From Flavobacteriales bacterium (GTDB lineage: Bacteria; Bacteroidota; Bacteroidia; Flavobacteriales; Flavobacteriaceae): a stretch of DNA of 64,000 nt. Each line of letters opens with the position of its first letter. Position 1 is the first letter of the stretch. Location of the stretch: the NCBI GenBank assembly GCA_026996605.1, contig JALWLE010000141.1:3086-67085 (forward strand), read 5' to 3'. Shown one piece after another: positions 16,099-59,055 of the stretch. Both the position numbers and the translations under genes were made by a program. The notes below the pieces were generated by a model that worked only from the letters and a program-made list of their open reading frames with translations, was not told where the DNA came from and made no database searches.

Positions 16099-16998
16099 TC
16101 AATTCCTTTTTCCAATATATTTTAATATTTTATCCAAGTCATACGCCATATCAAACCACTTGATATCCTGATTTTTCCTAAACCAAGTTAATTGCCTTTT
16201 GGCAAAACGACGCGTGTTTTTTTTTATTTCTGATATAGCAAAATCTAAATCGTATTGACCGTCAAAATATTGAAACAATTCTCGATACCCAACGGTTTGT
16301 AAGGCATTTTGTTCTCTGTAAGGATATAGTTTTTTAGCTTCGTCAATCAGCCCTTGTGCTACCATAACATCAACACGACGGTTGATACGGTTGTATAAAG
16401 TCGTTCTCTCTCCGGTTAGTCCTATATAGATGGTTTTAAAATCACGTGTGGTTTTTTGTTGATATAAATCAGCCATCTTTTTGCCGTTGGCTTGCCGTAA
16501 AATTTCTATGGCTCTAATCAAACGGTGTGGATTAAGTATATCAATTTTTTGATAATAATCAGAGTCAAGAGCTTGTAATTGTTTTTGTAAACTTTCAATA
16601 CCGTTTTTTTTTAAATCAATGGCTAATTCTTGTCTGATTTTTTCGTTTTTATTCGGTAATTTATCTAGTCCTTTACAAGCTGCATCAATATATAACCCAC
16701 TACCACCTACCAGTATTAAAGTATCTTTGGTTTGAAAAAGTTTTTTAGTCAGTTTTAAGAAATCATCTTCATAGTCGCCTACGTTATAATCTTCAAAAAT
16801 AGATTTGTTTTGAATAAAATAATGTTTTGCAACAGCTAGTTCGTCCGGTTCCGGCACAGCGGTTCCTATGCGCATCTCTTTATAAAATTGTCGTGAGTCA
16901 GCCGAAATAATTTCGGTATTAAGTGCTTGTGCCAGTTTGATACTCAGTGCGGTTTTTCCCGATGCAGTCGGTCCTATAATAGCGATAATACGTTTCAT
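16099..16998 (-). CDS. miaA: tRNA dimethylallyltransferase
   Basis: IIGPTASGKT P-loop, DSRQFYKEMRIGTA, and RRFAKRQLTWFR near the C-terminus. Confidence 0.9.
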   Translation of the reverse strand: MKRIIAIIGPTASGKTALSIKLAQALNTEIISADSRQFYKEMRIGTAVPEPDELAVAKHYFIQNKSIFEDYNVGDYEDDFLKLTKKLFQTKDTLILVGGSGLYIDAACKGLDKLPNKNEKIRQELAIDLKKNGIESLQKQLQALDSDYYQKIDILNPHRLIRAIEILRQANGKKMADLYQQKTTRDFKTIYIGLTGERTTLYNRINRRVDVMVAQGLIDEAKKLYPYREQNALQTVGYRELFQYFDGQYDLDFAISEIKKNTRRFAKRQLTWFRKNQDIKWFDMAYDLDKILKYIGKRN

Positions 16999-17407
16999 AT
17001 TAACCGTTTGTTTTTCCCTTTATATTTTCTTACTTATTAGTCCTTGTTATAGATTAATGAGATTAGCTAATTAAGTGATAAAATATATATTATTTTGTTG
17101 TTTTCTTGTTGTCGTTGATATTCAGAGCTTTAAGTTTTTCTATTCTTGCTTTTTCCCTAACTTATTGATAGATAATATTAAAATTTCCTTATGATTTAAG
17201 ATTTATTTAGTAAAATATAAGTATAAAAAGTTTTGTAAACAGGCGATAAAAATACGGTTTTTTAATTAAATAAATTCTTTTTACTTTATCAACTAATTAC
17301 GAAACAATTGTTACATTATTTTTATTTAGAATGAATATAATTTATAAATTTGTTAACAATCTTCTAAAAACCTGATATTTTTCATAAAAATAACTTTCTC
17401 TATCTGG

Positions 17408-17415
17408 TATTTTTG
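17408..17415 (+). promoter_or_regulatory. Candidate Bacteroidota -7 box (TAnnTTTG) for the 13-gene cluster
   Basis: tatttttg lies 20 nt upstream of ATG 17435, within a 436-bp AT-rich divergent region. No clear -33 TTTG seen. Confidence 0.25.
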
Positions 17416-17434
17416 AGATGAAAATATTGCAAAT

Positions 17435-17953
17435 ATGTCAGCAAAAACTATTTCTCCAAGTCGTTATTTTTATACATTTTTTATAGTTTTTTTGATTTGG
17501 TATGCCTTTACGACTTCGTTACAACCTGCTGAAATCATAACCGGCATAGTTTTGAGTTTGGTGGTGGCATACATCACGGTAGTTAATTTTGATTGTTGCG
17601 ACCCGATTTTGATAACGCCGTCACACATTATATATTTTATCCAATACTTTTTAGTGTTTTTGGTAGCTTTGGTCAAAGCAAACTTTGATGTTGCCAAACG
17701 AGTTATTAATCCGAAATTACCAATCAATCCGGGTATTGTAAGCTTTGAGACTAAATTAAAAAATAATTTTGCAAAAATGGTTTTAGCTAATAGTATCACC
17801 TTAACCCCCGGAACCTTAACAATTGATGTAGTGGATGATAAATTTTATATACATTGGATAGACGTAACAACCGAAAATAAAGACGAAATTTATAAAGAAA
17901 TAGCCGAACCTTTTGAAAAGGTTTTGTTGAAGATATATGGCAGTAGCAAGTAG
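17435..17953 (+). CDS. MrpE/MnhE (MbxA-position) subunit of Mrp-type cation:proton antiporter module
   Basis: ANFDVAKRVINP...PGIV...LANSITLTPGTLTIDV...YIHWIDV matches the MnhE signature. The stop TAG lies inside a repeat. Confidence 0.8.
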   Translation: MSAKTISPSRYFYTFFIVFLIWYAFTTSLQPAEIITGIVLSLVVAYITVVNFDCCDPILITPSHIIYFIQYFLVFLVALVKANFDVAKRVINPKLPINPGIVSFETKLKNNFAKMVLANSITLTPGTLTIDVVDDKFYIHWIDVTTENKDEIYKEIAEPFEKVLLKIYGSSK

Positions 17954-18200
17954 AGACTAATTGTAATTCGTCTCTGTGAAAAGTGCAAATGTAGAGACGC
18001 ACGGTTGTGCGTCTGATGCGGAAAATTTGAAGAGACGTTTTGGCAAAACGTCTGAATTGAAAAATGAAAATGAAAAATTGACAATGTAGAGACGTTGCAC
18101 CGCAACGTCTGAAAAATCTAAAATCTGAAATGAATAATACATCGGACATCCGACATCAGATAACCAGTATCATCAGATAACCAAGTAACCAAATAATCAA
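17950..18200 (+). repeat. REP/BIME-like mosaic at junction 1
   Basis: Four GTAG(or GAAG)AGACG...CGTCT hairpins at 17950-17975, 17991-18018, 18029-18056 and 18086-18114. These are followed by AAATTGA/AAATCTG/ACATCSG heptamer tracts and a CA-rich AAATAACC-type tract (18158-18200) that ends at ATG 18201. Confidence 0.9.
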
Positions 18201-18458
18201 ATGAACATAGTAATATACATAGCAATTGTTTTAATCAGCATAGGTAGTTTTTTAGCTTTTATGCGTTTTGTAAAAGGACCTACGGCAGCCGACAGGGCTA
18301 TTGCCCTCGATACACTTTCGGTTATTGGAATAGCCGGATTGGTCTTATTGGGCTATTTATTTCAACGATACATTTATATCGATTTAGCACTAGTATATGC
18401 CGTTTTGGGATTTATTGGCACTATCGTGATTGCACGTTATATCGAAAAAGCATTGTAA
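18201..18458 (+). CDS. MrpF/MnhF-like subunit
   Basis: 85 aa, 3 TM. RFVKGPTAADRAIALDT motif. Confidence 0.8.
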   Translation: MNIVIYIAIVLISIGSFLAFMRFVKGPTAADRAIALDTLSVIGIAGLVLLGYLFQRYIYIDLALVYAVLGFIGTIVIARYIEKAL

Positions 18459-18823
18459 TGGATACATTAAATAATATATTGGAATACATCGGACTGTTTT
18501 TTGTGCTACTGGGCAGTATTTTTCTGTTTCTCGGTGCATTGGGAATTTATCGTATGCCCGATTTGTACAACCGCCTGCAAGCCGGCACCAAAGCATCTAC
18601 ATTAGGTGCGATGAGTATGGTTTTGGGAATAGGACTGATGCAACCCGGTTGGCTGATTAAACTTATCGTGATAATTCTGTTTATCGGGATATCCAATCCT
18701 TTGAGTTCACATGCCTTGGCAAGAGCATCGTACAAGAGTGGTATTCGTCCGTTTTTTAAGAAGAAGGTAGATGATTATGAGGAAGAAGTTGAAAGTGAGA
18801 AGGGAAAAATGGAAAGTGTGTAG
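18458..18823 (+). CDS. MrpG/MnhG-like subunit
   Basis: GALGIYRMPDLYNRLQAGTKASTLG motif. ATGA overlap with the preceding gene. Confidence 0.8.
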   Translation: MDTLNNILEYIGLFFVLLGSIFLFLGALGIYRMPDLYNRLQAGTKASTLGAMSMVLGIGLMQPGWLIKLIVIILFIGISNPLSSHALARASYKSGIRPFFKKKVDDYEEEVESEKGKMESV

Positions 18824-18845
18824 AGACGAATTGCAATTCGTCTCT
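18820..18845 (+). repeat. Single GTAG-footed REP-like hairpin (class 1) at junction 2
   Basis: gTAGagacgaattgcaattcgtctct. Its TAG is the stop codon of the MrpG-like gene. Confidence 0.85.
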
Positions 18846-18895
18846 TGTGAAAAGTGACAAAATGTAAATAGGAAGAAAAAGTAGTAAGCATTGCT

Positions 18896-18990
18896 GTCAT
18901 TTCGACAGAGCGACGTTAGGAGCGACGAGAAATCTCAAAATTATAAATTTGAAATAAACAAATAGATTTCTCACTGTGTTCGAAATGACA
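18896..18990. repeat. Second repeat family ('X' element): inverted half-sites GTCATTYCGA...GAGRAATCTC / AGATTTCTCAC...TCGAAATGAC
   Basis: The two arms are separated by 27 nt. Copies also occur at 24545-24618 and 28995-29066. Confidence 0.8.
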
Positions 18991-19018
18991 AAAAAATCAA
19001 TTAACAAAAAATAATAAA

Positions 19019-19294
19019 ATGGCTTTAATCTTATTTTTAATAGTAATGGCAATCATATTAATCGCAGCGGCAATCTATGCAGTGATGCAAAAAGATTTAT
19101 TGTATGCCGTTTTGGCAACGGGTATTATCAGCGTGGTACTATCCGTGTTTTTTTATCTGTTGCAGGCACCTGATGTGGCTATCACCGAAGCTGCAATAGG
19201 CATTGCTTTAACAACGATAATTTTTATCATTACCATACGAAATACATCACGAAATGAAGAGGAATACAGTGAGGATCATATCAAGAAGTTTTAA
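19019..19294 (+). CDS. MbhD/MrpB-N-terminal-like (DUF4040-type) small membrane subunit
   Basis: 91 aa, 3 TM. LQAPDVAITEAAIG motif typical of MbhD/MnhB N-terminal domain. Confidence 0.7.
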   Translation: MALILFLIVMAIILIAAAIYAVMQKDLLYAVLATGIISVVLSVFFYLLQAPDVAITEAAIGIALTTIIFIITIRNTSRNEEEYSEDHIKKF

Positions 19295-19309
19295 GTGGAA
19301 AATGCGAAC

Positions 19310-19528
19310 GTAGAGATGCACAATTGTGCGTCTGATGTAGAGACGAATTGCAATTCGTCTCTGTGAAAAATGCGAATGTAGAGACGCACGGTCGTGCGTC
19401 TGATGCGGAAAATTCGTAGAGACGTTTTGGTAAAACGTCTGAATAAAAAATTGTAAATGTAAAATTGATAATGTAGAGACGTTGCACCGCAACGTCTAAA
19501 ATCGAAAATCTGAAATCTGAAATCTGAA
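19310..19528 (+). repeat. REP/BIME-like mosaic at junction 3
   Basis: Five hairpins at 19310-19337, 19337-19362, 19378-19405, 19416-19444 and 19473-19497. An (AAATCTG)n tract then runs directly into ATG 19529. Confidence 0.9.
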
Positions 19529-20248
19529 ATGAAAAAATACATCATATTCATATTAATTGCCATATTGGGTTTGACATTAGCGCAGACCTTTAAAGCCATT
19601 CCTTTTGGAGCGGATAGACGTGGCGATTTGGAAAATCCGGATAAAGTAGCAGCATATTATTTAAAAGAATCACCGGAAACTTTGCAAACGGCTAATTCCA
19701 TTACGGCTATCGTTGTGAATTTCAGGGGGTTTGACACATTAGGCGAAGTAACCGTTTTGTTTTTAGCAGCAACTGGATTAGCAAGTATTTTATATCGAAA
19801 AGAAGAAGAAGATGAAGAGGAAGTAGAACGCGTTCGTTTGCCATCATCAAGTTTGGTACGAACAGGTGCCAAAATCTTATTTCCGTTGATGTTATTGTTG
19901 GGAATTTACGTGTTTGTACACGGACATTTAACACCGGGTGGAGGATTTCAAGGAGGCGCCATTATTGCTACCGGATTTTTGTTGATGCTGATAACCTATA
20001 AGCATTTTGAAACCAATCACAAGGTAATGGTTTGGCTTGAAAGTTTGGCCGGCTTGGCATTTGTAGCAGTCGGGCTTTACGGTTTGTTTGCCTATGGGTC
20101 GTTTTTGCAAAATACACATTCCGTCGGCACGCTGAACGATTTAATCAGTGGAGGCTTAATTCCTTTAATTTATATTTTTATCGGAATTAAAGTCGGCACG
20201 GAATTGACGAATATTTTGGATATTTTGTTGAAGATTAAAAAAAGCTGA
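19529..20248 (+). CDS. MrpB/MnhB-like subunit
   Basis: NSITAIVVNFRGFDTLGEVTVLF signature, followed by TM helices. Confidence 0.8.
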   Translation: MKKYIIFILIAILGLTLAQTFKAIPFGADRRGDLENPDKVAAYYLKESPETLQTANSITAIVVNFRGFDTLGEVTVLFLAATGLASILYRKEEEDEEEVERVRLPSSSLVRTGAKILFPLMLLLGIYVFVHGHLTPGGGFQGGAIIATGFLLMLITYKHFETNHKVMVWLESLAGLAFVAVGLYGLFAYGSFLQNTHSVGTLNDLISGGLIPLIYIFIGIKVGTELTNILDILLKIKKS

Positions 20249-20291
20249 CGCTTTTTTAGTGCGAAGTGGAAAGCGATAAAGTGGAAAGTGC

Positions 20292-20579
20292 GTAGAGACG
20301 AATTGCAATTCGTCTCTATGAAAAATACGAATGTAGAGACACACAATTGTGCGTCTGATATAGGAAGCGCGTAGAGACGTTTTGGTAAAACGTCTGAATT
20401 GAAAATTGAAAATGAAAAATTGAAAATTAATAACGTAGAGACGTTGCACCGCAATGTCTGAAAATCAAAAATCGAAAATCTGAAATGAATAATACATCGG
20501 ACATCCGACATCGCTCATCGGACAAATCATCCGACATCAATTAACCAAATAACCGGTATAACCAAATAACCAAAAATAA
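20292..20579 (+). repeat. REP/BIME-like mosaic at junction 4
   Basis: Four hairpins at 20292-20317, 20333-20359, 20371-20398 and 20435-20463. These are followed by heptamer tracts and a CA-rich tract ending at ATG 20580. Confidence 0.9.
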
Positions 20580-20972
20580 ATGACAGAATTTAACGACTTG
20601 TTCATCAAATATAAAGATCTGATAACCATTGCGGTTTACGGGACGGCTATAATGTTGATTTTGATTGGCTTATATGCCGTATTGCTCAAAAAACATTTGG
20701 TAAAAATAGTCATCGGCTTATCTATTATTGATGCCGGTGTGCATTTGCTTTTTGTAGCGGTGGGCTATATTCAAAATGGTACGGCACCCATCTTTTCACC
20801 CGGCAATGAACATGCTGCGAGTAAAATGGTTGACCCTGTTCCGCAAGCATTGGTATTGACGGCAATCGTTATTGGTTTTGCCGTAACGGCTTTGGCTTTG
20901 TCCTTGGTTATTCGATTATACAAGCATCATCATACAGCAAATATTGATCAAATAAAATCATTGAAATGGTAA
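20580..20972 (+). CDS. MrpC/MnhC (NuoK-like) subunit
   Basis: 130 aa, 3 TM. DPVPQALVLTAIVIGFAVTA motif. Confidence 0.8.
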   Translation: MTEFNDLFIKYKDLITIAVYGTAIMLILIGLYAVLLKKHLVKIVIGLSIIDAGVHLLFVAVGYIQNGTAPIFSPGNEHAASKMVDPVPQALVLTAIVIGFAVTALALSLVIRLYKHHHTANIDQIKSLKW

Positions 20973-22447
20973 TTAGTCCGGTTCATTATATCGTAGCGCC
21001 TTTGTTGGCGGCTTTTGCAATTCCGTTGCTCACCAAGCTTTATAAAGATGCGGCGCGTGTGGTGCCGGGAATTGTCTTGTTTTACAATGTCATAATTTCC
21101 TTTGTGTTGATGCAGCAAGTATCGCAAACCGGAATGATTAGCGAAGTGCTTGCCGGTTGGCGTCCGCCTTGGGGCATCAATTTGGTTTTGACACCTTTTA
21201 CGGCATTTTTGGCGACAATGATATCGGTTTTGGGTTTTATCATTTGGCTTTACGGCTTCCGCTTTAAGCGAACATTGAAGGGTGGGGTTGTCAAGCATTA
21301 CGAAATACTGCAAATGATGATGGTTGCCGGTTCTATTGGGGTGATTATTACCGGTGACTTGTTCAATATGTTTGTGTTTATCGAAATTGTCGGTATTACA
21401 GCCTATTCACTTACAGCATTTTACCGGGAGAGAAACGGTGCCGAAGCAGGTTTTAAATATTTATTAATCGGAAGTTTGGCTTCTACATTTCTGTTATTAG
21501 CTATTTTGATTATTTATACACAAACCGGCACGCTTAATATGGCGCAAATTGCTGAAAGAATGGCTTTTGTTCCGCATACAATGAAAGTAACCGCCTTAAT
21601 ATTTTTCTTAATAGCCTTGGGTATTGAAGCTGAAATGTTTCCGCTCAATGCTTGGGCACCGGATGCTTACGAGCAAGCACCTTCGCCAACAAGTGCCACC
21701 TTTGCTGCAGTGGTTTCCATAGCAGGCGTGTATGCTTTGGTTCGGGTATTGTTTACTTTGTTTGACGTATCAGGCGTGCATAATTATTTGATTGTAATGG
21801 GGTTTGTAACGATGTTGGTAGCGGAAATTACCGCTATTGCACAAAAAAATCTCAAACGAATGTTGGCTTATTCCAGTATCGGTCAAGTGGGCTTGGTATT
21901 GATTGCCTTTGGTATCGGTAGCAAGTTGGCGGTGTTTGGTGCAATATTTTTGATGCTCAATCATGCAGTTATTAAGTCCTTACTGTTTATGACAGGTAGT
22001 TATTTTATCTATAATGCTGATGACAAACGTTTGATTGGCTTAAACGGTATGCACAAACAGTTGCCTTATGTATCCGCTTTGTTTTCATTGGCTGCCTTTG
22101 CCATAGTGGGCTTTCCGCCTTTTTCAGGATTTTGGAGTAAATTTTATATCCTGATTTCGGCATCCGACCAAAAAATGATGTATCTGATTATTGGTATTTT
22201 GTTGGTAACGATTATCGAATTGGTTTACTATTTACGGGCAGTCGGACGTATTTATTTTGCCAAAGAAGAAATGGAAGACGTTGCACATCGTCCGTCTGTC
22301 AATGCTTTGGTGGCGATGTCATTATTAGCTTTGTTTATCATTGTAGTCGGTGTTTATCCCGATATTGTTACCGGCTATCTCAATGATGCCGCTAGTGCGT
22401 TATTAGATAAAGCGCATTATATTCAACAAATTTTAGGAAGTAAATAA
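20966..22447 (+). CDS. MrpD/NuoM/N-like proton/sodium-translocating antiporter-type subunit (MbxH position)
   Basis: 493 aa, about 14 TM. Conserved AYSSIGQVG and LNHAVIKSLLFM motifs. Overlaps the upstream gene by 7 nt. Confidence 0.8.
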   Translation: MVISPVHYIVAPLLAAFAIPLLTKLYKDAARVVPGIVLFYNVIISFVLMQQVSQTGMISEVLAGWRPPWGINLVLTPFTAFLATMISVLGFIIWLYGFRFKRTLKGGVVKHYEILQMMMVAGSIGVIITGDLFNMFVFIEIVGITAYSLTAFYRERNGAEAGFKYLLIGSLASTFLLLAILIIYTQTGTLNMAQIAERMAFVPHTMKVTALIFFLIALGIEAEMFPLNAWAPDAYEQAPSPTSATFAAVVSIAGVYALVRVLFTLFDVSGVHNYLIVMGFVTMLVAEITAIAQKNLKRMLAYSSIGQVGLVLIAFGIGSKLAVFGAIFLMLNHAVIKSLLFMTGSYFIYNADDKRLIGLNGMHKQLPYVSALFSLAAFAIVGFPPFSGFWSKFYILISASDQKMMYLIIGILLVTIIELVYYLRAVGRIYFAKEEMEDVAHRPSVNALVAMSLLALFIIVVGVYPDIVTGYLNDAASALLDKAHYIQQILGSK

Positions 22448-22451
22448 GATT

Positions 22452-24302
22452 ATGGAAATGAACAGTTTAGCTATCATATTAGGCGTACTTTTTACCGGCA
22501 GTATTTTGACGTTCAGCATTGATACATTCAATCGAAAACTCACCGGATGGACAGCATTTGCAACGCTTCTTATTGCTACAATATATTTTTATACCACTGG
22601 AAATGATGCTGATTTTAGTTTACAAATTGGTGGGATAACCTTAAAATGGGGACTATCGGCATTTCGCCTATTTTTCATAAATATCGTATTGATATTGGGT
22701 GTTTTAGCACTACTTTATTCCATCGGATATATGAAAGGAAAAGCCCGTTTGGGCTATTTTTACGCATCCTTTGTAATGACGATTTTAGGAATGTTCGGTG
22801 TAGTTATCAGTAAAGATTTCGTGTCCCTATTTATCTTTTGGGAAATTATGACTTGGTCGTCCTTCCTATTGATTATTTACAATGCCTATTACAAGATTAA
22901 AACAGAAGGACTGAAATATATGGTTTTTAGCGCTATCGGTGCGTATGCAATGCTGACAGCTATCGTTTTTATTTATCATTTTTACGGCACATTTGATATA
23001 GCCGAAGCGATGCAGAAAGGTGTCTTTTCGTTTGAAAATCACGCTTTTATACCCATATTTTTGGCATTGGGATTTGCCATAAAAGCCGCCGTGATGCCCT
23101 TTCACGTATGGGCACCTTCGGGTTATGCTAACAGTCCGATGTCATTTACATCAGTATTTTCTGGTGCAATGTCCAAAATGGGCGTGTTTGGACTCTTGTT
23201 GATTTTTGCAACTTATTACACATCTCATACACCGGGTGCTTATGTGTTCACGCAAATTCTGGCGTGGATGGGTGGTATTACCGCTGTGATGGGGACTATT
23301 TACGCACTCATACAAAACGATGCCAAAAAATTGTTGGCATATTCATCTATTGCACAATTAGGATACATTGTAGTGGCACTGTCCACAGGAACCAAATTGG
23401 GCGTAATGGCAGCCCTGTTTTTAGCGGTATTACACGCTGCCTTTAAAGGCGCCTTGTTTATGGTAGCAGGTGCGGTCGAAAAGCAAGCCGGCACTACGGA
23501 TATGACCAAAATTTCGGGTTTAATCAGAAAAATGCCATGGACGTTTTTTGTTGCCTTGGTTTCTGTTATTTCATTGGCTGGTGTGCCACCACTTGGGGGA
23601 TTTATCGGAAAATGGCTCTTATATGAAGCTTTGATTACCGAAAGTCATAACTATTTCTTGGTCATTGTGATATTTTTTTCATCGACAGCGGCATTTTTGT
23701 ATGCTTACCGATTTTTATTCGGATTATTTTTAGGACAAGAGGAAAAAGAAACAGAAAATGTAAAAGAAGCCCCTTTGACGATGCTCGTTCCGATGATTGT
23801 TTTGGCATTGGTTTCTATCATTACAGGTGCGATGCCCGGATTGATTTTTAAACCGGCAGCCGTAGCGATGCGAGATATCGGCTTTTCATCTATGGATTGG
23901 CAAATGTCCACATTATCAAATGTTTGGGGTAATAATGTAGATGTCAGTTTGATTGGTGCATTTATAGGTATTGTTTTCGTTTTGATTTTTGCATTTTTGA
24001 CATTAAAAGGACGTAAAACAACCCGTAAAGTTGGCACCAAAGAAATTTCCAGTTCAGGAGAATTGTGGAAAGAAGGCGAGAATTGGACCTTTCAACAAGA
24101 TTTTTTCAAACCCTTTGAACGCGCCGCATCGCCTTTATACAAGTTGAAAATGAACAAAATATGGGAAGATTTGGGTAATGCATTAGAAGCATTCTTTAAT
24201 TTTTTCAGACGCATATATACCGGCAATGGACAGACGTATGCGATGTATGTTGTGGGATTTCTTGTTTTGTTGATTTTGTTTAGAGATTATATATTTAAGT
24301 AG
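22452..24302 (+). CDS. Second antiporter-type subunit, NuoL/MrpA/MrpD-like with C-terminal extension (MbxH' position)
   Basis: 616 aa. FWEIMTWSSF, AYSSIAQLGY and LHAAFKGALFM motifs. An extra ~130-aa tail ends in a TM helix. Confidence 0.8.
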   Translation: MEMNSLAIILGVLFTGSILTFSIDTFNRKLTGWTAFATLLIATIYFYTTGNDADFSLQIGGITLKWGLSAFRLFFINIVLILGVLALLYSIGYMKGKARLGYFYASFVMTILGMFGVVISKDFVSLFIFWEIMTWSSFLLIIYNAYYKIKTEGLKYMVFSAIGAYAMLTAIVFIYHFYGTFDIAEAMQKGVFSFENHAFIPIFLALGFAIKAAVMPFHVWAPSGYANSPMSFTSVFSGAMSKMGVFGLLLIFATYYTSHTPGAYVFTQILAWMGGITAVMGTIYALIQNDAKKLLAYSSIAQLGYIVVALSTGTKLGVMAALFLAVLHAAFKGALFMVAGAVEKQAGTTDMTKISGLIRKMPWTFFVALVSVISLAGVPPLGGFIGKWLLYEALITESHNYFLVIVIFFSSTAAFLYAYRFLFGLFLGQEEKETENVKEAPLTMLVPMIVLALVSIITGAMPGLIFKPAAVAMRDIGFSSMDWQMSTLSNVWGNNVDVSLIGAFIGIVFVLIFAFLTLKGRKTTRKVGTKEISSSGELWKEGENWTFQQDFFKPFERAASPLYKLKMNKIWEDLGNALEAFFNFFRRIYTGNGQTYAMYVVGFLVLLILFRDYIFK

Positions 24303-24305
24303 CAA

Positions 24306-24654
24306 GTAGAGACGTACGGTCGTGCGTCTGATGAGGGATAAGAGATAAATTAGTGGAAAGTGGAAAGCGTAGAGACGAATTGCAATTCGTCTCTGTGGAA
24401 AAAGAAAAATATGTAGAGACGCACGGTCGTGCGTCTGATGTAGAAATTGTGTAGAGATGTTTTGGTAAAACGTCTAAATAGAAATTTAAAATTGATAATG
24501 TAGAAACGTTGCACGCAACGTCTGAAAAATATGCAATGAATAGTGAGATTTCTCACTACGTTCGAAATGACAGGCGTTGTCATTCCGACAGAGCGACGAA
24601 GGAGCGACGAGGAATCTCAAATAACCAAATAACCGATTAACCAAATAACCAGAA
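24306..24654 (+). repeat. REP/BIME-like mosaic at junction 7, including an X element
   Basis: Five hairpins at 24306-24333, 24369-24394, 24413-24440, 24451-24475 and 24500-24527. X element at 24545-24618. CA-rich tract at 24619-24654 abuts ATG 24655. Confidence 0.9.
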
Positions 24655-25608
24655 ATGATATTAACAATCAAAATATTAGGCGCATTACTAACCGCAATCT
24701 TGGCTTTTACAGTCGGGATGTTTTACGGTGGTTTACGACGTAAGATTACGGCGCGTGTACAAAATCGTGTAGGACCGCCGGTTTACCAGAATTTTTTAGA
24801 TTTAATGAAATTGCAAGCCAAAGAAACCAATATTGCGCACGGTTTTATGGGGCATATGGCACCAATGTGGATTATCATAGCGGCGATGACTGTTTTGATG
24901 TTTATTCCCGTCTTGCACAACGGTTTATGGTTTGACAATTTAACCTTTAAAGGCGATTTGATTTTCATCCTTTATATGATGGTCTTTGGGTCATTGGGAA
25001 TGGCATTAGGTGCCGGACAATCCGGTAATCCCAATTCGGCAATTGGTGTAACTAGGGGTTTGGCAATGATGGTGGGTTATGAAATTCCGTTTGTGTTGTC
25101 ACTGGTAGCCATTATGATACAATTTCATACGACATCCTTGCAAGATTTAATGCAATACCAACAAGAAACCGGTAGATGGATTATTATGGAGAATCCCTTT
25201 GCATTTCTAGCGGCATTATTATCTTCCTTGGGAATGTTTCGCTATTCGCCTTTTGATATTGTAGGCGCACCGGCAGAATTGGCATCGGGACCGGTATCGG
25301 AATTCGGTGGCAAATATCTCGGAACAATGATGAGTGGTGGTGCTGTGTTTGCCTTTATCAAATTGGTTTTGTTTGTCGATATTTTCTTGGGAGGCGCCGG
25401 TAATACGGAATTAGAAGGTATTCTAGGCACATTAGCAGGATTAGGTGAATTGTTATTAAAAACATTTTTGTTTTATATGATTCCCGTTTTTATCGGATTA
25501 GTTAGTCCCAGATTTAGAACCGAACAAGCCATTCGATTTTTTTGGAAATGGCCAACGTTTTTAGGGATTTTAGCAATTGTTTGGGCGTTGTATCATCCTA
25601 TTCGTTAA
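24655..25608 (+). CDS. NuoH/MbhM/HyfC-like membrane subunit
   Basis: RKITARVQNRVGPP motif and about 8 TM helices. Confidence 0.8.
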   Translation: MILTIKILGALLTAILAFTVGMFYGGLRRKITARVQNRVGPPVYQNFLDLMKLQAKETNIAHGFMGHMAPMWIIIAAMTVLMFIPVLHNGLWFDNLTFKGDLIFILYMMVFGSLGMALGAGQSGNPNSAIGVTRGLAMMVGYEIPFVLSLVAIMIQFHTTSLQDLMQYQQETGRWIIMENPFAFLAALLSSLGMFRYSPFDIVGAPAELASGPVSEFGGKYLGTMMSGGAVFAFIKLVLFVDIFLGGAGNTELEGILGTLAGLGELLLKTFLFYMIPVFIGLVSPRFRTEQAIRFFWKWPTFLGILAIVWALYHPIR

Positions 25609-25621
25609 AAATTAAAAGTGT

Positions 25622-25826
25622 GTAGAGACGAATTGAAATTCGTCTCTGTGGAAAGTTAAAAGTTGAATGTAGAGACGTTTTGGTAAAACGTCTGAATTGA
25701 AAATTGAAAATGGATAATTAATAAATAACATCCGACATCGGTCATCCGACAATCAATAAACCAGTATCATCAAATAACCCCTGATGAGAATCGGGGTAAG
25801 CAAATAACCACATAACCGAAAATAAA
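25622..25826 (+). repeat. REP/BIME-like mosaic at junction 8
   Basis: Hairpins at 25622-25647 and 25669-25696. ACATCSG-like tract. CA-rich tract with embedded hairpin cccctgatgagaatcgggg, ending at ATG 25827. Confidence 0.85.
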
Positions 25827-26480
25827 ATGACAAATAATCCGGACAAAAATATCAAAACACTCGGCATACCAACCGAAGATGAAATTCGTCAAGCGCAGAT
25901 TGAATTTGCGCCGCGTTGCACATCAGCCGGGCGGGTCAATGATAAGGAAACGCAAAAAATGGTGCAATATATTTTGAACTTTGCTCGTAAGCATTCATTG
26001 TTTGTCTTAGCTTATGGCACTGGTTGTGGCGCTATTGAAATTCCGGCAACGATGACATCCCGTTACGATGCGGAACGCTTTGGAATTCGCGGGGCGGCAA
26101 CCCCTAGGCAAGCAGATGTCTTGCTGATTACCGGTTACCTATCCACCAAAACCTTAAAAAGAGTTATCCGCGTGTATGAGCAAATGCAAGACCCTAAATA
26201 TGTCATTGCTTTTGGTTCGTGTACCATTAACGGTGGGATGTATTTTGACAGTTATAATACTATCAAAGCGCTCGACCGGTATTTACCGGTAGATGTATAT
26301 ATCGCAGGATGTATGCCGCGTCCCGAAAGTGTGATTAAGGGCTTTATCAAATTACAAGAATTAATACAAAACGGCAATGCCGGCGGTGGCAAATGTTATC
26401 GCGATAATTTGGAATGGTATCGTGCCAATCAACAAAAAGTAATCAAAAATTGGGATTTTCCCGATGAGTATAATTGGTAA
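25827..26480 (+). CDS. NuoB/MbhJ-like [4Fe-4S] small subunit
   Basis: GTGCGAIE...RQADVLLITG...GSCTINGG...GCMPRPE. The first motif has a single Cys where NuoB has CC. Confidence 0.8.
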   Translation: MTNNPDKNIKTLGIPTEDEIRQAQIEFAPRCTSAGRVNDKETQKMVQYILNFARKHSLFVLAYGTGCGAIEIPATMTSRYDAERFGIRGAATPRQADVLLITGYLSTKTLKRVIRVYEQMQDPKYVIAFGSCTINGGMYFDSYNTIKALDRYLPVDVYIAGCMPRPESVIKGFIKLQELIQNGNAGGGKCYRDNLEWYRANQQKVIKNWDFPDEYNW

Positions 26481-26487
26481 GTGAAAC

Positions 26488-26522
26488 GATGATATGGTTA
26501 TTTGTTGATATGGTTATATGAT
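26488..26522. repeat. TG-rich tract, the inverted counterpart of the AAATAACC/ATATCATC tracts
   Basis: gatgatatggttatttgttgatatggttatatgat is complementary to 26920-26965 downstream of the four-helix-bundle gene. Confidence 0.7.
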
Positions 26523-26547
26523 AGTTGAACAGAAAAAAGGATATTGA

Positions 26548-26913
26548 ATGAAACGACAATTTTCTTTTGAAAAATTAGAAGTTTGGCAAAATGCAATTGA
26601 TTTATCGATTGATGTTTATCAATTGACGAAAGATTTTCCGGATGAAGAAAAATTTGTTTTAGTTAATCAAATGAGGAGAGCAGCCTTATCCATTTCGTCA
26701 AATATTGCAGAAGGAAACGGTAGAGAAACAAATAACGATCAAGCCAGATTTACAACAATGGCATACGGCAGTCTGATGGAATTATTAAACCAATTGATTT
26801 TTTCCTATAAATTAGGATATATATCAGAAAATCAATTAGACGAATTAAGAGATAAGATTAATCTTATTTCAAACCAATTAAACAGATTAAGAAAATATCA
26901 AAAAAACAGATAA
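26548..26913 (+). CDS. Four-helix-bundle protein (23S rRNA intervening-sequence / Avd-like family) inserted inside the operon
   Basis: 121 aa. FEKLEVWQNAIDL...QMRRAALSISSNIAEGNGR...SLMELLNQL pattern of the S23-IVS family. Confidence 0.8.
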   Translation: MKRQFSFEKLEVWQNAIDLSIDVYQLTKDFPDEEKFVLVNQMRRAALSISSNIAEGNGRETNNDQARFTTMAYGSLMELLNQLIFSYKLGYISENQLDELRDKINLISNQLNRLRKYQKNR

Positions 26914-26919
26914 CCTATT

Positions 26920-27044
26920 AACCAATATCATCAAATAACCAGTTAACCAATATCATCAAATAACCCCCGACAATAGTTGGGGTAAGCAGATAATCAAATA
27001 ATCAGTATAACCAGTTAACCGATTAACCAAATAACCAATAAGAA
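26920..27044 (+). repeat. CA-rich AAATAACC/ATATCATC tract array with embedded small hairpin, abutting ATG 27045
   Basis: aaccaatatcatcaaataacc occurs twice, then cccccgacaatagttgggg, then ataaccagttaaccgattaaccaaataacc. Confidence 0.85.
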
Positions 27045-27602
27045 ATGCAAGAAAACATATTAAATCAACTCAAAAAAGTCTTTAAAATTGATGGCGAGAT
27101 AAAAACGCCAATGCGAATAAAAATCGTAGCAGACAAGGACTTGGTGTCGAGTATTTTGCTTTATTTAAAAAATCAGATGGGTTTTATCCACTTGAATCAT
27201 ATGTCTTGTGTGGATTGGATTGAGGACAATAAATTTGAGTTGGTGTATATCGTTTGGCATCCGGAACAAAAGCAAACCGTTTTGGTGCATACGTTTATCG
27301 ACAGGAATAATCCGGTAATGGAAAATATAGATACGATATGGGATCAAGCCAATACCTACGAAAGGGAAATGCGAGAGATGTATGGAATAGAATTTCCCGG
27401 ATTGATAGGCGCTAAAGAATTTATTTTAGAAGATTGGCAAGAAATGCCCCCGATGCGACGTGATTTTGATACGAAAAAATATGCACAAGAAACCTATGAA
27501 ACGCGTCCCGGAAGAGAAAACGCCCGTGATGTAAGAGAAGAATTGATGAAACGAAGCGGCGAAGAATTACCGGATTTTGCGAAAAAGTATTCTAGGGATT
27601 GA
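27045..27602 (+). CDS. NuoC/MbhK-like subunit
   Basis: ANTYEREMREMYGIEFPG signature (ERE..D/E.GI.F). Confidence 0.8.
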   Translation: MQENILNQLKKVFKIDGEIKTPMRIKIVADKDLVSSILLYLKNQMGFIHLNHMSCVDWIEDNKFELVYIVWHPEQKQTVLVHTFIDRNNPVMENIDTIWDQANTYEREMREMYGIEFPGLIGAKEFILEDWQEMPPMRRDFDTKKYAQETYETRPGRENARDVREELMKRSGEELPDFAKKYSRD

Positions 27603-27642
27603 GTGTTTAGTGGAAACCGGAAAAGTGCTAAGTGGAAAGTGC

Positions 27643-27792
27643 GTAGAGACGTTTTGGCAAAACGTCTGAATTGAAAATTGAAAATGGATAATTGACAACG
27701 TAGAGACATTGCAAGCAACGTCTAAAAAATCTGAAATCTGAAATCGCAAATCTGAAATATAAAATCAAATAACCGATTAACCAAATAACCAA
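27643..27792 (+). repeat. REP/BIME-like mosaic at junction 11
   Basis: Hairpins at 27643-27670 and 27700-27727. AAATCTG heptamers. CA-rich tract ending at ATG 27793. Confidence 0.85.
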
Positions 27793-28896
27793 ATGTTAGA
27801 AAAAGAAACAACCTTATATTTAGGACCACAGCACCCGGGGATTACCGGAAATATGATGATAAAGCTCAAAGTCAAAGGCGATGTGGTAACACAAGCCGAA
27901 ACGCACGTTGGGTATTTGCATCGGGCTTTTGAGAAACTGATTGAAGGACGCAATTGGTTACAATCCTTTACGTTATTGTGCCGTTTTTGTGTACCGGAGC
28001 CGGACCCTATGGAACTGACATATGCACGTGCCGTAGAGCAAATCGAAGGGCGTGAAGTACCGCCACGTGCTAAATATATCCGGACTATCGTTGCGGAATT
28101 AGCTCGTATTCAATCGTTTTTGTTGTGGTATGGCGGTCAATCCGGTTCGAGTGGTTTATACACATTGGGACAATGGAGTGTCGGAGACAGAAACTATATT
28201 CTCGACTTATTTGAAGATCTGACCGGTGCACGAATTTATCATATGTATATGTGGCCCGGTGGTGTGCGTCGCGATTTGCCGGAAGGTTGGGTTGATAAGG
28301 CATATAAGACGATGGATTATCTGGAAAAACGATTAGATGATTACAATAAATTATTATTTGACAATGCCATTTTTCAAAAACGGGCACAAGGTGTCGGCAT
28401 TATCCCCAAAGATAAAGCCATAGAATGGGGCGTTGTAGGCGCACCGTTGCGTGGCACCGGTATTAAGCACGATGTGCGTATCGATGAACCTTACGAAGCT
28501 TACTCCGATTTGGATTTTGTTGTGCCAACTTACGAAGGAGGTGACGTGTGGGCAAGAGCACTCGTTCGTAGAGATGAGATTAAGCAATCTATAAGTATTA
28601 TCAGACAAGCTCTGGATAAAATGCCGGGCGGTAGTTATTACAATCGTATTCCAAACCCGATGAAATGGACGGTTCCGGCAGGAGAAGCTTGGGTAAAAAC
28701 CGAAAGTGTCCGTGGCGAAATAGGATTTTATGTGGTCAGTGATGGTAGCAACAAACCAAGACGGGTACATTTGAAAGGTGCTGCTTATACACACGGTGTT
28801 AGTGTGTTGGAAAAAATATTGCCCGGACAGAATATTGCCGATGTATCATTTATTTTGAATTCGTTAGGCGTTTGTCCCCCGGAGATTGAGAGGTAG
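27793..28896 (+). CDS. NuoD / group-4 [NiFe]-hydrogenase-large-subunit-like protein with an incomplete Ni-Fe ligand signature (MbxL/MbsL-like)
   Basis: GPQHPGITG start. HVGYLHRAFEKL. LLCRFCVPEPDP where hydrogenases have RxCGxCxxxH. C-terminus LGVCPPEIER where hydrogenases have DPCxxCxxR. Confidence 0.8.
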   Translation: MLEKETTLYLGPQHPGITGNMMIKLKVKGDVVTQAETHVGYLHRAFEKLIEGRNWLQSFTLLCRFCVPEPDPMELTYARAVEQIEGREVPPRAKYIRTIVAELARIQSFLLWYGGQSGSSGLYTLGQWSVGDRNYILDLFEDLTGARIYHMYMWPGGVRRDLPEGWVDKAYKTMDYLEKRLDDYNKLLFDNAIFQKRAQGVGIIPKDKAIEWGVVGAPLRGTGIKHDVRIDEPYEAYSDLDFVVPTYEGGDVWARALVRRDEIKQSISIIRQALDKMPGGSYYNRIPNPMKWTVPAGEAWVKTESVRGEIGFYVVSDGSNKPRRVHLKGAAYTHGVSVLEKILPGQNIADVSFILNSLGVCPPEIER

Positions 28897-28926
28897 CTAG
28901 CGCGAGTTAAAAGTTGATAGTTGGAA

Positions 28927-29066
28927 GTAGAAACGCACGATCGTGCATCTGATGTAGAAAGCGCAGATGAATTGAAAATTGAAAATGGAGAATTAGATTT
29001 CTCACTGCGTTCGAAATGACAGCAATTGTCATTCCGACAGAGCGAGGGACGAGCGACGAGGAATCT
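28927..29066 (+). repeat. Degenerate REP-like hairpin plus X element at junction 12
   Basis: gtagaaacgcacgatcgtgcatctgatg at 28927-28954. X element agatttctcactgcgttcgaaatgaca-gcaat-tgtcattccgacagagcg...gaggaatct at 28995-29066. Confidence 0.8.
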
Positions 29067-29173
29067 AATCTAAAAATTTGATATGTAATAATAAGTTTTA
29101 AGAAGATGTCATTTAAAAAGTAGAATTTTGGTTTGTATTTCTGCAAGGCACTTCACACTAAAAAATATAGACA

Positions 29174-30964
29174 ATGAGTATAATAGATTTGAAAGGCATA
29201 TTAACACCAATGACGGCGCTGAAGCAAATTGGAAAACAACCGCATACCATAAGTTTTCCAGATGAGCAGAAAGATATTTCGCCGCGTTATAGAGGTTTTC
29301 ATTACAACGATTTGGAGCAATGTATCGGTTGTGGCAACTGTGCGACTATTTGTATGAATGAAGCCATTGATATGATTGCATTGGCGGGCATTGAGGGACA
29401 AGCCGGTGATAGTGGCTTACGCCCGCAGATAGACTATGGGCGTTGTTGTTATTGTGCCTTGTGTGTCGATGTATGTCCGTCAGGCTCGCTCAATATGACA
29501 CAAGATTTTATCAAAGTCAGCCCTGATCCTTTTGATTTCTTGATGGTGCCGGGTAAGGACAATCCCGAGGCAAAAGAAAAATTGAGTTTTACGGCAGATC
29601 TAGATACATCGCTCAATGTATTTGACCGTGTGCCAATGCGTGAACTCGACCCGGAAGAACGGGTAAAATCTTTTGCCGAAGTATTTTTGGGCTATAACGA
29701 AGAAGAAGCCCGTATTGAAGCCAGTCGTTGTATCAGTTGCGGACTTTGTACTGAAAATTGTCCGGTGCATATGCACATACCGGAATATATCAATGCCATT
29801 GCCAAAGCTGATGATGAAGCGGCAATTAAGATCATTTATGACAATAACGATTTACCCGAAATGTGTGGTAAAGTTTGTACTCGTCGTTGTGAAGATGTTT
29901 GTGCGTTGCAGGTAAGAGGAGAAGCCGTTGCGATTCGTTGGCTTAAACGCTATGCAACCGAACGGGCTGAAAATGCCGATATGATTGCCGAAATTGTCAA
30001 TCCTGAAATCAGAGAACCGAATCAATATAAAGTTGGTATTATTGGTGCCGGTCCGGGTGGATTAACCGCTGCATATTATTTGGCATTACGCGGTTACAAT
30101 GTAACGGTTTACGAAGCGCATAAAGATCCGGGCGGTATGATAATGTATGGTATTCCAAAATACCGTTTGCCGTATGAAAGTATCCAAAAACAGGTGGATT
30201 ATATGAAAAAAGTTGGTGTAAAAATACATTTCAATACGGTGGTTGGAAAAGATATAAGTTTTGATGAAATTTATAACAACAGCGATGCCGTTTTTATGGC
30301 GGTTGGACTGCAAGATGCATGGAATTTGGGCATAGAAAATGACGATGCCAAAGGTGTATGGTCTGCTATTAATTTTCTAGGAAAAGTCAATTCCGGCGAA
30401 CCGGTTGATATTGGAAAACGCGTCGTTGTAGTAGGCGGTGGTGATGTGTCTATTGACTGTTCTCGTGTATCGCGCCGTTTGGGTGCCGAAGTTTATCAAT
30501 CTTACAGACGTCGTATTCAAGATATGCCTGCGGATTTAGAAGAAATTGAAGGTGCAGAAGCCGAAGGTGTACATATTATGCCACAAACCATTCCGACACG
30601 TGTGATTAAAGACGAAAACGGTAAAGTCAAAGGATTGGAATACGTCAGAGCCGAAATGATTTCGGAAGGCGGTGGACGTCCGCGACCAAAACCTATTGAG
30701 GGCAGCGAAACCATAATCGAATGTGATGCCGTGATTGCCGCAATCGGACAAAAAGCTGATTACAGCTTACTACCGGAACATATTTTAGCCAAATTGGAAA
30801 TGCAAAAAAATAAAATTGTGGTGGATGAGAATAGGAAAACATCTATTCCTAAATTATTTGCCGGTGGTGATGCCGTTGTTTCCGGTCGTAATGATGCCAT
30901 TTCGGCAATTGCAGATGGCTACGCTGCTACAAAAGCGATTGATGCGATGTTGATGGGGAGTTAA
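29174..30964 (+). CDS. Fusion protein: NuoI/MbhN-like 2x[4Fe-4S] ferredoxin domain plus GltD/SudA/NfnB-like NAD(P)H-dependent FAD oxidoreductase
   Basis: N-terminal CIGCGNCATIC and CCYCALCVDVCP. Then RCISCGLCTENCP...MCGKVCTRRCEDVC, and GIIGAGPGGLTAAYYL...GGMIMYGIPKYRLP plus a second Rossmann VVVVGGGDVSID. Confidence 0.85.
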   Translation: MSIIDLKGILTPMTALKQIGKQPHTISFPDEQKDISPRYRGFHYNDLEQCIGCGNCATICMNEAIDMIALAGIEGQAGDSGLRPQIDYGRCCYCALCVDVCPSGSLNMTQDFIKVSPDPFDFLMVPGKDNPEAKEKLSFTADLDTSLNVFDRVPMRELDPEERVKSFAEVFLGYNEEEARIEASRCISCGLCTENCPVHMHIPEYINAIAKADDEAAIKIIYDNNDLPEMCGKVCTRRCEDVCALQVRGEAVAIRWLKRYATERAENADMIAEIVNPEIREPNQYKVGIIGAGPGGLTAAYYLALRGYNVTVYEAHKDPGGMIMYGIPKYRLPYESIQKQVDYMKKVGVKIHFNTVVGKDISFDEIYNNSDAVFMAVGLQDAWNLGIENDDAKGVWSAINFLGKVNSGEPVDIGKRVVVVGGGDVSIDCSRVSRRLGAEVYQSYRRRIQDMPADLEEIEGAEAEGVHIMPQTIPTRVIKDENGKVKGLEYVRAEMISEGGGRPRPKPIEGSETIIECDAVIAAIGQKADYSLLPEHILAKLEMQKNKIVVDENRKTSIPKLFAGGDAVVSGRNDAISAIADGYAATKAIDAMLMGS

Positions 30965-31504
30965 TAAGTGGAATGTATTTAGTGCCAAGTGAAAAGAGGT
31001 AAAGTTTAAAGAGACAAAGTAGGACATTTAAAATAATACCAATTCCAAATATAAAATAGTCCAAAAGGATTTGGGGTATTCCCGATTTATAGAGACAGAT
31101 TATACCGATATTCATAAAAATAGTTCAATTTTCCGGAAATTATCATGATTTTGATTATGATAATCAAAAAAATGAGAACCGTAAATAGGATGTGAAACGA
31201 ACCTACAATAACAATCAGATTAAGAGGTTTATTTATCGTTTTATAGCAATTGCAAGAAAATGGATGCATCAATGGCGGTAATGGGTGTTAAAACTCTACA
31301 CTAATCGACCGTATTATACAGGTTGATTGATCGAAAAACATATCTTAAATGTTAAATACAGGGAAGGGAATATTTGGTTTTTAAATAGATAATTGTTGAT
31401 AACCGGACTGTTATGTTTTATTTGTAAAATTATGCTCTTTATTTGTTTAAAAGTATAACTAGTCTTTTCAAAATTATCTATTGATAAGCTAAAAAAATAT
31501 TAGC

Positions 31505-58985: not shown

Positions 58986-59002
58986 TTTTTATTAATTAAA
59001 AA

Positions 59003-59029: not shown

Positions 59030-59055
59030 ATTAATTTTGATATATCAAGCCAAAC

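Follow-up and report, generated by a model that had tools for sequence, protein, structure and literature searches.

We present here a 13-subunit gene cluster at positions 17435 to 30964 of a 64,000-nucleotide stretch of DNA (the window) from a Flavobacteriales bacterium (assembly GCA_026996605.1, contig JALWLE010000141.1, positions 3,086 to 67,085, forward strand). Judged by homology and gene order, the cluster is a bacterial member of the MBS/MBX family, a predicted complex-I-like, Mrp-linked, ion-translocating oxidoreductase. Its last gene joins an MbsN-like domain to an NfnB/GltD-type flavoprotein; it is chiefly in this fusion that the cluster departs from archaeal MBS, and the fusion suggests NAD(P)H as the redox partner. 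We lean, by a little, toward a function in which NAD(P)H would feed electrons into FAD and then into a chain of five Fe-S clusters, the last of which, a three-Cys cluster, would pass them to sulfane sulfur, the process being coupled to Na+/H+ export. In evolutionary terms, MBS is viewed as standing between Mrp-linked hydrogenases and complex I, and to our knowledge it has been characterized only in a hyperthermophilic archaeon. The orthologous 13-gene cluster with its built-in NAD(P)H flavoprotein occurs in at least 64 species-level genomes of Bacteroidota and Ignavibacteriota. If our reading is true, these bacteria would carry out a pyridine-nucleotide-driven, ion-pumping sulfur respiration. 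Such a respiration would be a counterpart to the gain of an NADH module by complex I and may feed sulfur cycling by heterotrophic Bacteroidota.

Gene content and family assignment

A preliminary description of this DNA had reported 13 same-strand genes in mbx/MBS operon order, which is borne out by the Pfam calls and by the conserved order in related loci. All 13 complex-subunit open reading frames (ORFs) lie on the plus strand (Table 1). The first seven encode, in order, MNHE, MrpF, MrpG, MbhD, MbhE plus MnhB, NuoK-like, and Proton_antipo_M (493 aa) domains, and the other six encode Proton_antipo_M (616 aa), NuoH-, NuoB-, NuoC-, and NuoD-like domains and a NuoI-like N terminus. This is the one-strand order MbsA-B-C-D-E-G-H-H'-M-J-K-L-N of MBS/MBX. 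The count of 13 subunit genes stands, and an inserted 14th ORF at 26548 to 26913 (23S_rRNA_IVP) had been overlooked; it encodes a protein of the rRNA intervening sequence (IVS) type, which is not a subunit of the complex. No NuoE-, NuoF-, or NuoG-like ORF was found in the cluster or adjoining it. The start of the MbsJ-like ORF is uncertain, with some 40 unconserved N-terminal aa and an orthologue of 181 aa in "Candidatus Sulfidibacterium hydrothermale"; the true start may lie near Met45.

Eight subunits were compared with all PDB sequences, using the Pyrococcus furiosus structure 6U8Y as the MBS reference. For seven of the eight (E, H, H', M, J, L, and the N terminus of the last gene product), a 6U8Y chain was the top match, with wide margins over other PDB sequences. 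The MbsL-like protein matched 6u8y_L at 1.4e-106, Nqo4 at 3e-74, and MbhL at 1.5e-38; the MbsM-like protein matched 6u8y_M at 1e-52, MbhM at 8e-25, and Nqo8 at 3e-11; and the MbsE-like protein matched 6u8y_E at 1e-54 and MbhF at 2.5e-16. The MbsK-like protein matched 7q5y_B first (1e-13) and 6u8y_K second (1e-11). The L, J, H, and H' subunits are 47%, 59%, 37%, and 33% identical, respectively, to those of P. furiosus. There are two antiporter-like subunits, and H' has the C-terminal extension with TMH15-16 and the lateral helix that is typical of MBS/MBX. The MbsH'-like protein aligns with 6u8y_X from end to end (residues 3 to 608 versus 1 to 614), and its extension aligns to the P. furiosus MbsH' region with TMH15-16 and Loop 1. 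On ligand patterns and PDB ranking, a hydrogenase, canonical complex I, and a stand-alone Mrp system were rejected as identities, in agreement with the earlier statement that the cluster is neither an mbh hydrogenase nor canonical complex I.

Redox-site residues

MBS is defined by a three-Cys proximal cluster on MbsJ, two pump subunits, and the loss of the quinone ligands (PMC7684303). In P. furiosus MBS, C28, C93, and C123 of MbsJ hold the proximal [4Fe-4S] cluster, whose open iron reduces polysulfide, and ferricyanide treatment reversibly removes ~98% of the activity (PMC7684303). The P. furiosus MbsL protein is without the Nqo4 quinone ligands H38 and Y87, and its two remaining NiFe Cys residues, C85 and C385, are dispensable for activity (PMC7684303). 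The corresponding columns were read from alignments of orthologues from 56 to 60 related loci with P. furiosus, T. thermophilus, and T. elongatus references.

The MbsJ-like protein has exactly three cluster Cys residues, C67, C132, and C162, which are invariant (60/60), and Gly in both the MbsJ C25 column and the complex I tandem-Cys column (60/60). Its predicted proximal [4Fe-4S] cluster would thus have three Cys ligands and be site differentiated, as in MBS. In the MbsL-like protein, three of the four NiFe Cys columns are filled (C63, C66, and C361, in 56/56 aligned relatives); the fourth is Glu364 (55/55 nongap residues), and the signature His column is Pro70 (56/56). C66 and C361 are the equivalents of P. 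furiosus C85 and C385, and C63 is additional. The four-Cys motifs of group 4 [NiFe] hydrogenases, RxCGxCxxxH (L1) and DPCxxCxxR/H (L2), are replaced by CRFCVPEP and CPPEIER in 56/56. At the Nqo4 H38 and Y87 columns, the MbsL-like protein has T18 and V67 (56/56), identical to P. furiosus MbsL. The hallmarks of complex I are likewise lacking, with C-G for the NuoB tandem Cys-Cys, Thr/Val for NuoD H38/Y87, and no N-module.

These columns agree with what had been read from the letters. The motifs LLCRFCVPEPDP and C-terminal LGVCPPEIER are present in the 27793-28896 product, where at most three of the four Ni-Fe Cys residues and no signature His had been recognized, and GTGCGAIE is present in the NuoB-like 25827-26480 product with just the three cluster ligands then counted. 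Scoring of the Ni-Fe Cys and quinone-site columns, which had been proposed as a check, found neither four Ni-Fe Cys residues nor NuoD H38/Y87 conserved. Since a three-Cys J subunit and a partial NiFe motif are published MBS traits, the anomalies flagged earlier are the signature of MBS. The preliminary description was therefore right about an ion-translocating oxidoreductase and too broad in leaving the acceptor chemistry wide open, because the features on which it drew are those of published MBS, for which sulfane sulfur is the favored acceptor.

The same residues bear on two readings of the L subunit. A functional group 4 [NiFe] hydrogenase that evolves or consumes H2 would be consistent with the three filled NiFe Cys columns, with an MbsL-like protein that ends at Arg where mature hydrogenase large subunits end, and with hyp genes within the window. 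We give this reading almost no weight: Glu takes the place of the fourth ligand and Pro that of the L1 His throughout, the match to MbhL is far weaker than that to MbsL, the Pfam NiFeSe_Hases score is subthreshold (15.7 versus 25.8 bits), and the hyp genes adjoin a separate group-1-like hydrogenase. An NAD(P)H:menaquinone oxidoreductase, with the NfnB-like module in place of NuoEFG and menaquinone reduced in the MbsL/J/M chamber, is improbable to a lesser degree. The MBS chamber opens as widely as the chamber of complex I and lets hydrophobic substrates in (PMC7684303), and the L subunit scores above the NCBIfam NuoD equivalog cutoff (426 versus 360 bits). The quinone head-group ligands are nonetheless missing in all 56 aligned sequences, the NuoB tandem Cys-Cys is C-G in all 60, and the L and M subunits are much nearer to MBS than to complex I in the PDB comparison.

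In the pump subunits, the MbsH-like protein retains the TM5 Glu, and the column of the TM7 Lys (P. furiosus K250) is Ile252. That column is I or V in 14 of 44 aligned relatives, all of them metagenome-assembled genomes (MAGs) labeled Flavobacteriales or Flavobacteriaceae, and K in the other 30. Ile252 may mean that the MbsH pump module is disabled or altered; that the Lys loss reflects a lower pump stoichiometry is speculation. In MbsH', the P. furiosus E128 and K248 columns are retained in 45/45, and the TM5 Glu residues are invariant.

The fused flavoprotein

The last gene had been described as NuoI-like, which is correct for residues ~9 to 113 of its product and passes over residues 150 to 596, which are NfnB/GltD-like. 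Residues 9 to 113 form an MbsN/NuoI-like domain with two [4Fe-4S] clusters (6u8y_N, 3e-23), and residues 150 to 596 align over the full length of NfnB (Thermotoga maritima 4ylf_B, 1e-92; P. furiosus 5jca_L, 2e-90). This NfnB/SudA/GltD-like module has two [4Fe-4S] clusters, FAD, and an NAD(P)H site, with the Fer4_20, FAD, and NADPH domains of an NfnB-type large subunit. In an alignment of 40 homologues, 16 Cys residues, GAGPxG, GGG, and Y444-R-R-R are invariant; the 16 Cys residues are enough for four [4Fe-4S] clusters, and Y444-R-R-R aligns with the YRR of NADPH-binding NfnB proteins.

The fusion was found in every locus long enough to show it, with a constant offset of 450 nt between the halves, so that the N-like domain is fused in all loci and the stand-alone, ferredoxin-accepting N subunit of MBS is absent. 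Proteins of ~596 aa that share at least 64% identity make up more than 120 clusters. NCBIfam NF010590 (611 aa) matches the fusion from end to end below the cutoff (639 versus 946 bits), which indicates that the Bacteroidota fusion proteins form a separate subfamily. A tblastn search of the window with a relative's NfnA-like protein found no NfnA/SudB small subunit (FAD plus [2Fe-2S]); with this partner gene missing from the cluster, electron bifurcation is unlikely.

The gltD-type variant of bacterial MBX was already known, and the Bacteroidota cluster is an added member. In the mbx-like operons of Thermotoga and some proteobacteria, the NuoI position is occupied by an NAD(P)(H) flavoprotein related to gltD, and the NuoD homologue has vestigial NiFe Cys residues (PMC4758237, 2015). 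The mbxA gene of the 13-subunit MBX operon of T. maritima is induced 4.4-fold by S0 (PMC9431562), and MBS occurs in several thermophilic bacterial phyla (PMC10356935). In a search for mbx clusters of Bacteroidota or Ignavibacteria, we found no open-access paper describing one in Bacteroidota.

The key question for GltD-type MBX is whether NAD(P)H is donor or product. The second answer is the original "Mbx" idea of a ferredoxin:NAD(P)+ oxidoreductase, in which ferredoxin is the donor, the GltD/NfnB-like module reduces NAD(P)+, and ions are pumped, or the reverse, as in Rnf. This reading has been published both for mbx-like operons that contain gltD (PMC4758237) and for the Mbx of Mesotoga (bioRxiv 10.1101/322537). 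In its favor, NfnB-type modules act reversibly on NADP(H), and a separate NfnA/NfnB-like pair lies just downstream of the cluster in four relatives. We nevertheless regard it as unlikely. If electrons went from ferredoxin to FAD by way of the MbsN and NfnB clusters, the MbsJ/L/M chamber would be bypassed, which is hard to square with the invariant conservation of the chamber subunits and of the three-Cys cluster. Moreover, later work identified the archaeal prototype as a sulfane reductase rather than a ferredoxin:NADP+ oxidoreductase (PMC7684303).

Distribution and synteny

Relatives were collected by a scan of one genome per GTDB species, which gave 64 loci (numbered here with the prefix L), all MAGs. 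They are labeled Flavobacteriales/Flavobacteriaceae, Bacteroidales, Prolixibacteraceae, Draconibacterium, Saprospiraceae, or Melioribacteraceae, with a few odd ones. The 13-gene order and the fusion are present in every sufficiently long locus. Because of this and because the genes abut or overlap in the compact cluster of "Ca. Sulfidibacterium hydrothermale" (CP083760, complete genome), the mrp-like and nuo-like halves are not independent units, and the synteny comparison suggested earlier comes out in favor of a single cluster. "Ca. Sulfidibacterium hydrothermale," with its complete genome, is a candidate system for study. Locus L001, from a Flavobacteriales MAG with 99% MbsL identity to the window, is probably of the same species as the source of the window. 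A search of protein representatives returned 758 homologues at E values of ≤1e-30, and the cluster look-up named one archaeal member only, Zestosphaera; an exact-sequence look-up of the MbsL-like protein returned no record. Isolate labels of the relatives include SulCav_, ZodW_, and Sulfidibacterium hydrothermale, and these names suggest sulfidic or hydrothermal habitats.

The cluster is flanked in the window by opposite-strand genes, miaA on the upstream side and a gene for a Cys/Met-metabolism pyridoxal phosphate enzyme on the downstream side, and therefore stands alone. In the related loci, no flanking gene is conserved throughout. At least 16 relatives (L065 [CP083760], positions 1 to 932; L054, 45 to 1100; L030, 12895 to 13980; and others) have, immediately upstream or downstream of the cluster and in the same orientation, a DHO_dh-like (dihydroorotate dehydrogenase-like) gene (NF005741, 419 bits); the window does not. 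The product of this gene may serve the fused GltD-like module as an accessory redox partner. Downstream of the cluster, L023, L027, L028, and L062 encode an NfnA/PyrK-like protein and a second NfnB-like protein, neither of which is encoded in the window.

Proposed electron path

From the observed homology, gene order, ligands, fusion, and conservation, we infer a donor, an acceptor, a direction, and an ion stoichiometry as follows. The MbsJ-, K-, and L-like subunits and the fusion protein would form the peripheral arm, anchored to the membrane by the MbsM-like subunit. The NfnB/GltD-like module would take in electrons, as the N-module does in complex I: the FAD of the fusion would be reduced by NAD(P)H (probably NADPH), and electrons would move to the two [4Fe-4S] clusters of the flavoprotein module, the two MbsN-like clusters, and the MbsJ-like proximal [4Fe-4S] cluster. 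Three Cys ligands would leave one open iron on the proximal cluster, and by analogy with P. furiosus MBS this iron would reductively cleave S-S bonds in polysulfide or another form of sulfane sulfur, within the hydrophobic chamber that MbsJ, MbsL, and MbsM form. The same analogy makes sulfane sulfur the favored candidate acceptor. Loops of MbsH' and MbsM would couple the reaction to H+ movement in the antiporter-like MbsH and MbsH' subunits, and the Mrp-type module (MbsA to MbsG) would export Na+.

Several points weigh against this scheme. By textbook potentials, NAD(P)H lies at about -320 mV and polysulfide at about -260 to -270 mV, a difference worth ~10 to 12 kJ per 2 electrons. Such a yield is far below that from ferredoxin and makes the drive for three pump modules uncertain; published yields are 12 kJ for MBH and 42 kJ for ferredoxin-driven MBS (PMC8165549). 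The MbsH-like protein of the window is without the canonical TM7 Lys (Ile252). The sole paper that we found on the variant takes the flavoprotein for the output site, where NAD(P)+ is reduced (PMC4758237). In the AlphaFold2 model of the fusion (mean predicted local distance difference test [pLDDT] score, 68), residues 1 to 148 are unreliable (pLDDT below 50), so that a continuous cluster chain is a prediction. Finally, the DHO_dh-like gene adjacent to the cluster in at least 16 relatives is not found in the window.

An enzyme of the same architecture and with the same NAD(P)H link might use another acceptor at the open iron or at the MbsL Cys3-Glu site, such as thiosulfate, organic tri- or polysulfides, or a chalcogen or metalloid oxyanion. 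The bacterial clade invariantly holds C63, C66, C361, and E364 at the four NiFe positions, and P. furiosus MBS has just two of these Cys residues, neither of which is needed for reduction of dimethyl trisulfide (PMC7684303). Among the T. maritima genes tested, which include mbxA, transcript changes were larger with thiosulfate than with S0 (PMC9431562). The sequence points to no specific alternative substrate, however, and of the catalytic elements of the family, only the open-iron cluster has experimental support; we rate another acceptor as quite unlikely. With a similarly low expectation, we note that the Cys-x-x-Cys, Cys, and Glu site of the MbsL-like protein might be a mononuclear metal site or a redox-active thiol triad. 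In combination with the NADPH module, it might then support a chemistry unlike that of archaeal MBS (another sulfur or chalcogen substrate or a persulfide relay) in an independently evolved "NADPH-driven complex I for sulfur," and the Flavobacteriales, by losing the MbsH TM7 Lys, may also have lowered the pump stoichiometry to match the small driving force.

Spacers and other features of the window

The operon has a G+C content of 0.391, versus 0.341 in the remaining window. Its spacers contain arrays of one to four hairpin repeats on the sense strand with the consensus GTAGAGACG-stem-loop-CGTCT(C/G), for example at 17950 to 18200, 19296 to 19500, 20277 to 20580, 24292 to 24650, 25607 to 25826, and 27606 to 27792. 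The motif GTAGA(G/A)AC(G/A) has 20 copies in the 64 kb, all inside operon spacers and all on the plus strand, and AGAGACG-N8-16-CGTCT has 21 matches versus 0.01 expected. In the predicted fold of one 251-nt spacer there are four strong local hairpins (z = -3.0). In the terminator scan, none of the GTAGAGACG hairpins was terminator-like on the plus strand. Each array is followed by AAATCTGAAATC-like runs and then by (A/G)ATAACC / GATTAACC octamers up to the next ATG. The closest relatives, L001 and L057, have the same hairpins, partly in other spacers. A second repeat family, an imperfect palindrome of ~100 nt (GATTTCTCACTGCGTTCGAAATGACA ... TGTCATTCCGACAGAGCGA..GAGCGACGAGGAATC), occurs in three operon spacers (18939 to 18990, 24526 to 24624, and 28975 to 29073) and nowhere else in the window. 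An Rfam scan of 16900 to 32000 at E values of ≤0.1 gave no match, and a sigma-70 and terminator scan and a search with a Bacteroidota-type promoter pattern gave matches no more frequent than chance.

The IVS-type insert lies within 26481 to 27038, between the MbsJ- and MbsK-like genes, and is bracketed by inverted repeats (26495 to 26511 versus 26925 to 26941 and 26950 to 26965; 94% complementary), as in rRNA IVS. Divergent IVP ORFs (34 to 84% identity) occur in other spacers of the L001, L003, L004, L016, L017, and L057 operons, and the IVP ORF is missing from all 29 complete compact relatives. Operons with inserts are 12.8 to 13.05 kb long, versus 10.2 to 10.9 kb in these 29, and in near-identical relatives the inserts sit in different spacers.

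The ~970 bp downstream of the operon (30965 to 31937) contain no ORF of ≥110 aa; GC-rich short stem-loops, ACCCCTACGGGGT, lie at 31585 to 31597 and 31689 to 31701. A locus for a membrane-bound, group-1-like [NiFe] hydrogenase occupies 55341 to 63870 (Table 1).

Table 1. Features of the MBS/MBX-type cluster and of the hydrogenase locus in the window
Feature	Position	Strand	Best matches and remarks
MbsA-like (MnhE/MrpE) membrane subunit	17435..17953	+	PF01899 MNHE, E=3e-42; first in conserved order
MbsB-like (MrpF)	18201..18458	+	PF04066, E=5e-19
MbsC-like (MrpG)	18458..18823	+	PF03334, E=4e-25
MbsD-like (MbhD)	19019..19294	+	PF13244 MbhD, E=7e-20
MbsE-like, MbhE and MnhB fused as in MBS	19529..20248	+	PF20501 and PF04039; 6u8y_E, 1e-54
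MbsG-like (NuoK/MrpC)	20580..20972	+	PF00420, E=5e-28
MbsH-like antiporter-type subunit, 493 aa	20966..22447	+	Best PDB match 6u8y_H, 2e-93
MbsH'-like antiporter-type subunit, 616 aa	22452..24302	+	Best PDB match 6u8y_X, 5e-87
MbsM-like (NuoH-type), predicted membrane anchor of peripheral arm	24655..25608	+	Best PDB match 6u8y_M, 1e-52
MbsJ-like (NuoB-type), predicted three-Cys proximal [4Fe-4S]	25827..26480	+	Best PDB match 6u8y_J, 2e-66
23S-rRNA-IVS-type four-helix-bundle protein ORF	26548..26913	+	PF05635 (23S_rRNA_IVP), E=8e-39; TIGR02436
MbsK-like (NuoC-type)	27045..27602	+	PF00329, E=9e-26; 6u8y_K, 1e-11, second-best PDB match
MbsL-like (NuoD/NiFe-large-subunit-type), vestigial NiFe site	27793..28896	+	Best PDB match 6u8y_L, 1.4e-106
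MbsN-like and NfnB/SudA/GltD-like fusion, 596 aa	29174..30964	+	6u8y_N, 3e-23; 4ylf_B, 1e-92; 5jca_L, 2e-90
Operon intergenic spacers with repeats	17954..29173	+	Hairpin repeats, long palindromic repeat, octamer runs
Formyltransferase/enoyl-CoA-hydratase fusion protein	55341-57074	-	
HypD	57071-58174	-	
Maturation protease	58467-58985	-	
Cytochrome b	59056-59742	-	
Hydrogenase large subunit	59802-61529	-	Best NCBIfam model Hyd-1-type, below cutoff
Hydrogenase small subunit	61545-62627	-	
HypA	62709-63053	+	
HypB-like	63070-63870	+	

Comparison with known systems

P. furiosus MBS (formerly MBX; 6U8Y) shares with the window cluster the 13-subunit gene order, the H and H' pumps, the C-terminal extension of H', the fused MbhE/MnhB subunit E, the three-Cys proximal cluster on J, and a vestigial NiFe site on L with the C85 and C385 equivalents and without the quinone-binding His and Tyr. 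The two differ in that P. furiosus N is a stand-alone, ferredoxin-accepting protein of 208 aa, whereas N in the window is fused to an NfnB/GltD-type NAD(P)H flavoprotein. In addition, L in the window has a third NiFe-position Cys (CxxC) and Glu for Asp in the fourth column; J is without even the nonligating C25; the P. furiosus H330 and H336 columns are Leu or another non-His residue in every aligned relative; and the MbsH TM7 Lys is missing in the window lineage. The host is a low-GC Flavobacteriales bacterium rather than a hyperthermophilic archaeon. The Thermotoga and proteobacterial mbx-like operons, compared with the window by their published description, share the flavoprotein at the NuoI position and the vestigial NiFe Cys residues.

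MBH (group 4d [NiFe] hydrogenase of P. furiosus; 6CFW) has the same Mrp-linked architecture and homologous subunits, but it has one pump subunit, versus two in the window cluster (PMC7684303), which also differs in its incomplete NiFe site, its shortened J motif, and a similarity to MBH far below that to MBS. Complex I (Nuo/Nqo) and cyanobacterial NDH-1 have a homologous Q-module (B, C, D, and I), anchor H, and antiporter-like pumps, and likewise a dedicated nucleotide-oxidizing flavoprotein that feeds an Fe-S chain. Unlike complex I, the window cluster is without NuoEFG, NuoA, NuoJ, and NuoN and has an Mrp-type module as its distal part; its B subunit is without the tandem Cys and its D subunit without H38/Y87, and its flavoprotein is of the FAD/NfnB type, versus FMN/NuoF.

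In NfnAB/SudAB (NADH-dependent ferredoxin:NADP+ oxidoreductase; "sulfide dehydrogenase"), the NfnB/SudA large subunit corresponds over its full length to the C-terminal 450 aa of the fusion, which differ in being joined covalently to the NuoI/MbsN-type domain of a membrane complex. Ehr is an umbrella term for group-4-hydrogenase-like complexes without NiFe ligands, of which Mbx is cited as one type (PMC6349859). It is heterogeneous, and the window cluster can be placed more precisely, within the MBS/MBX branch.

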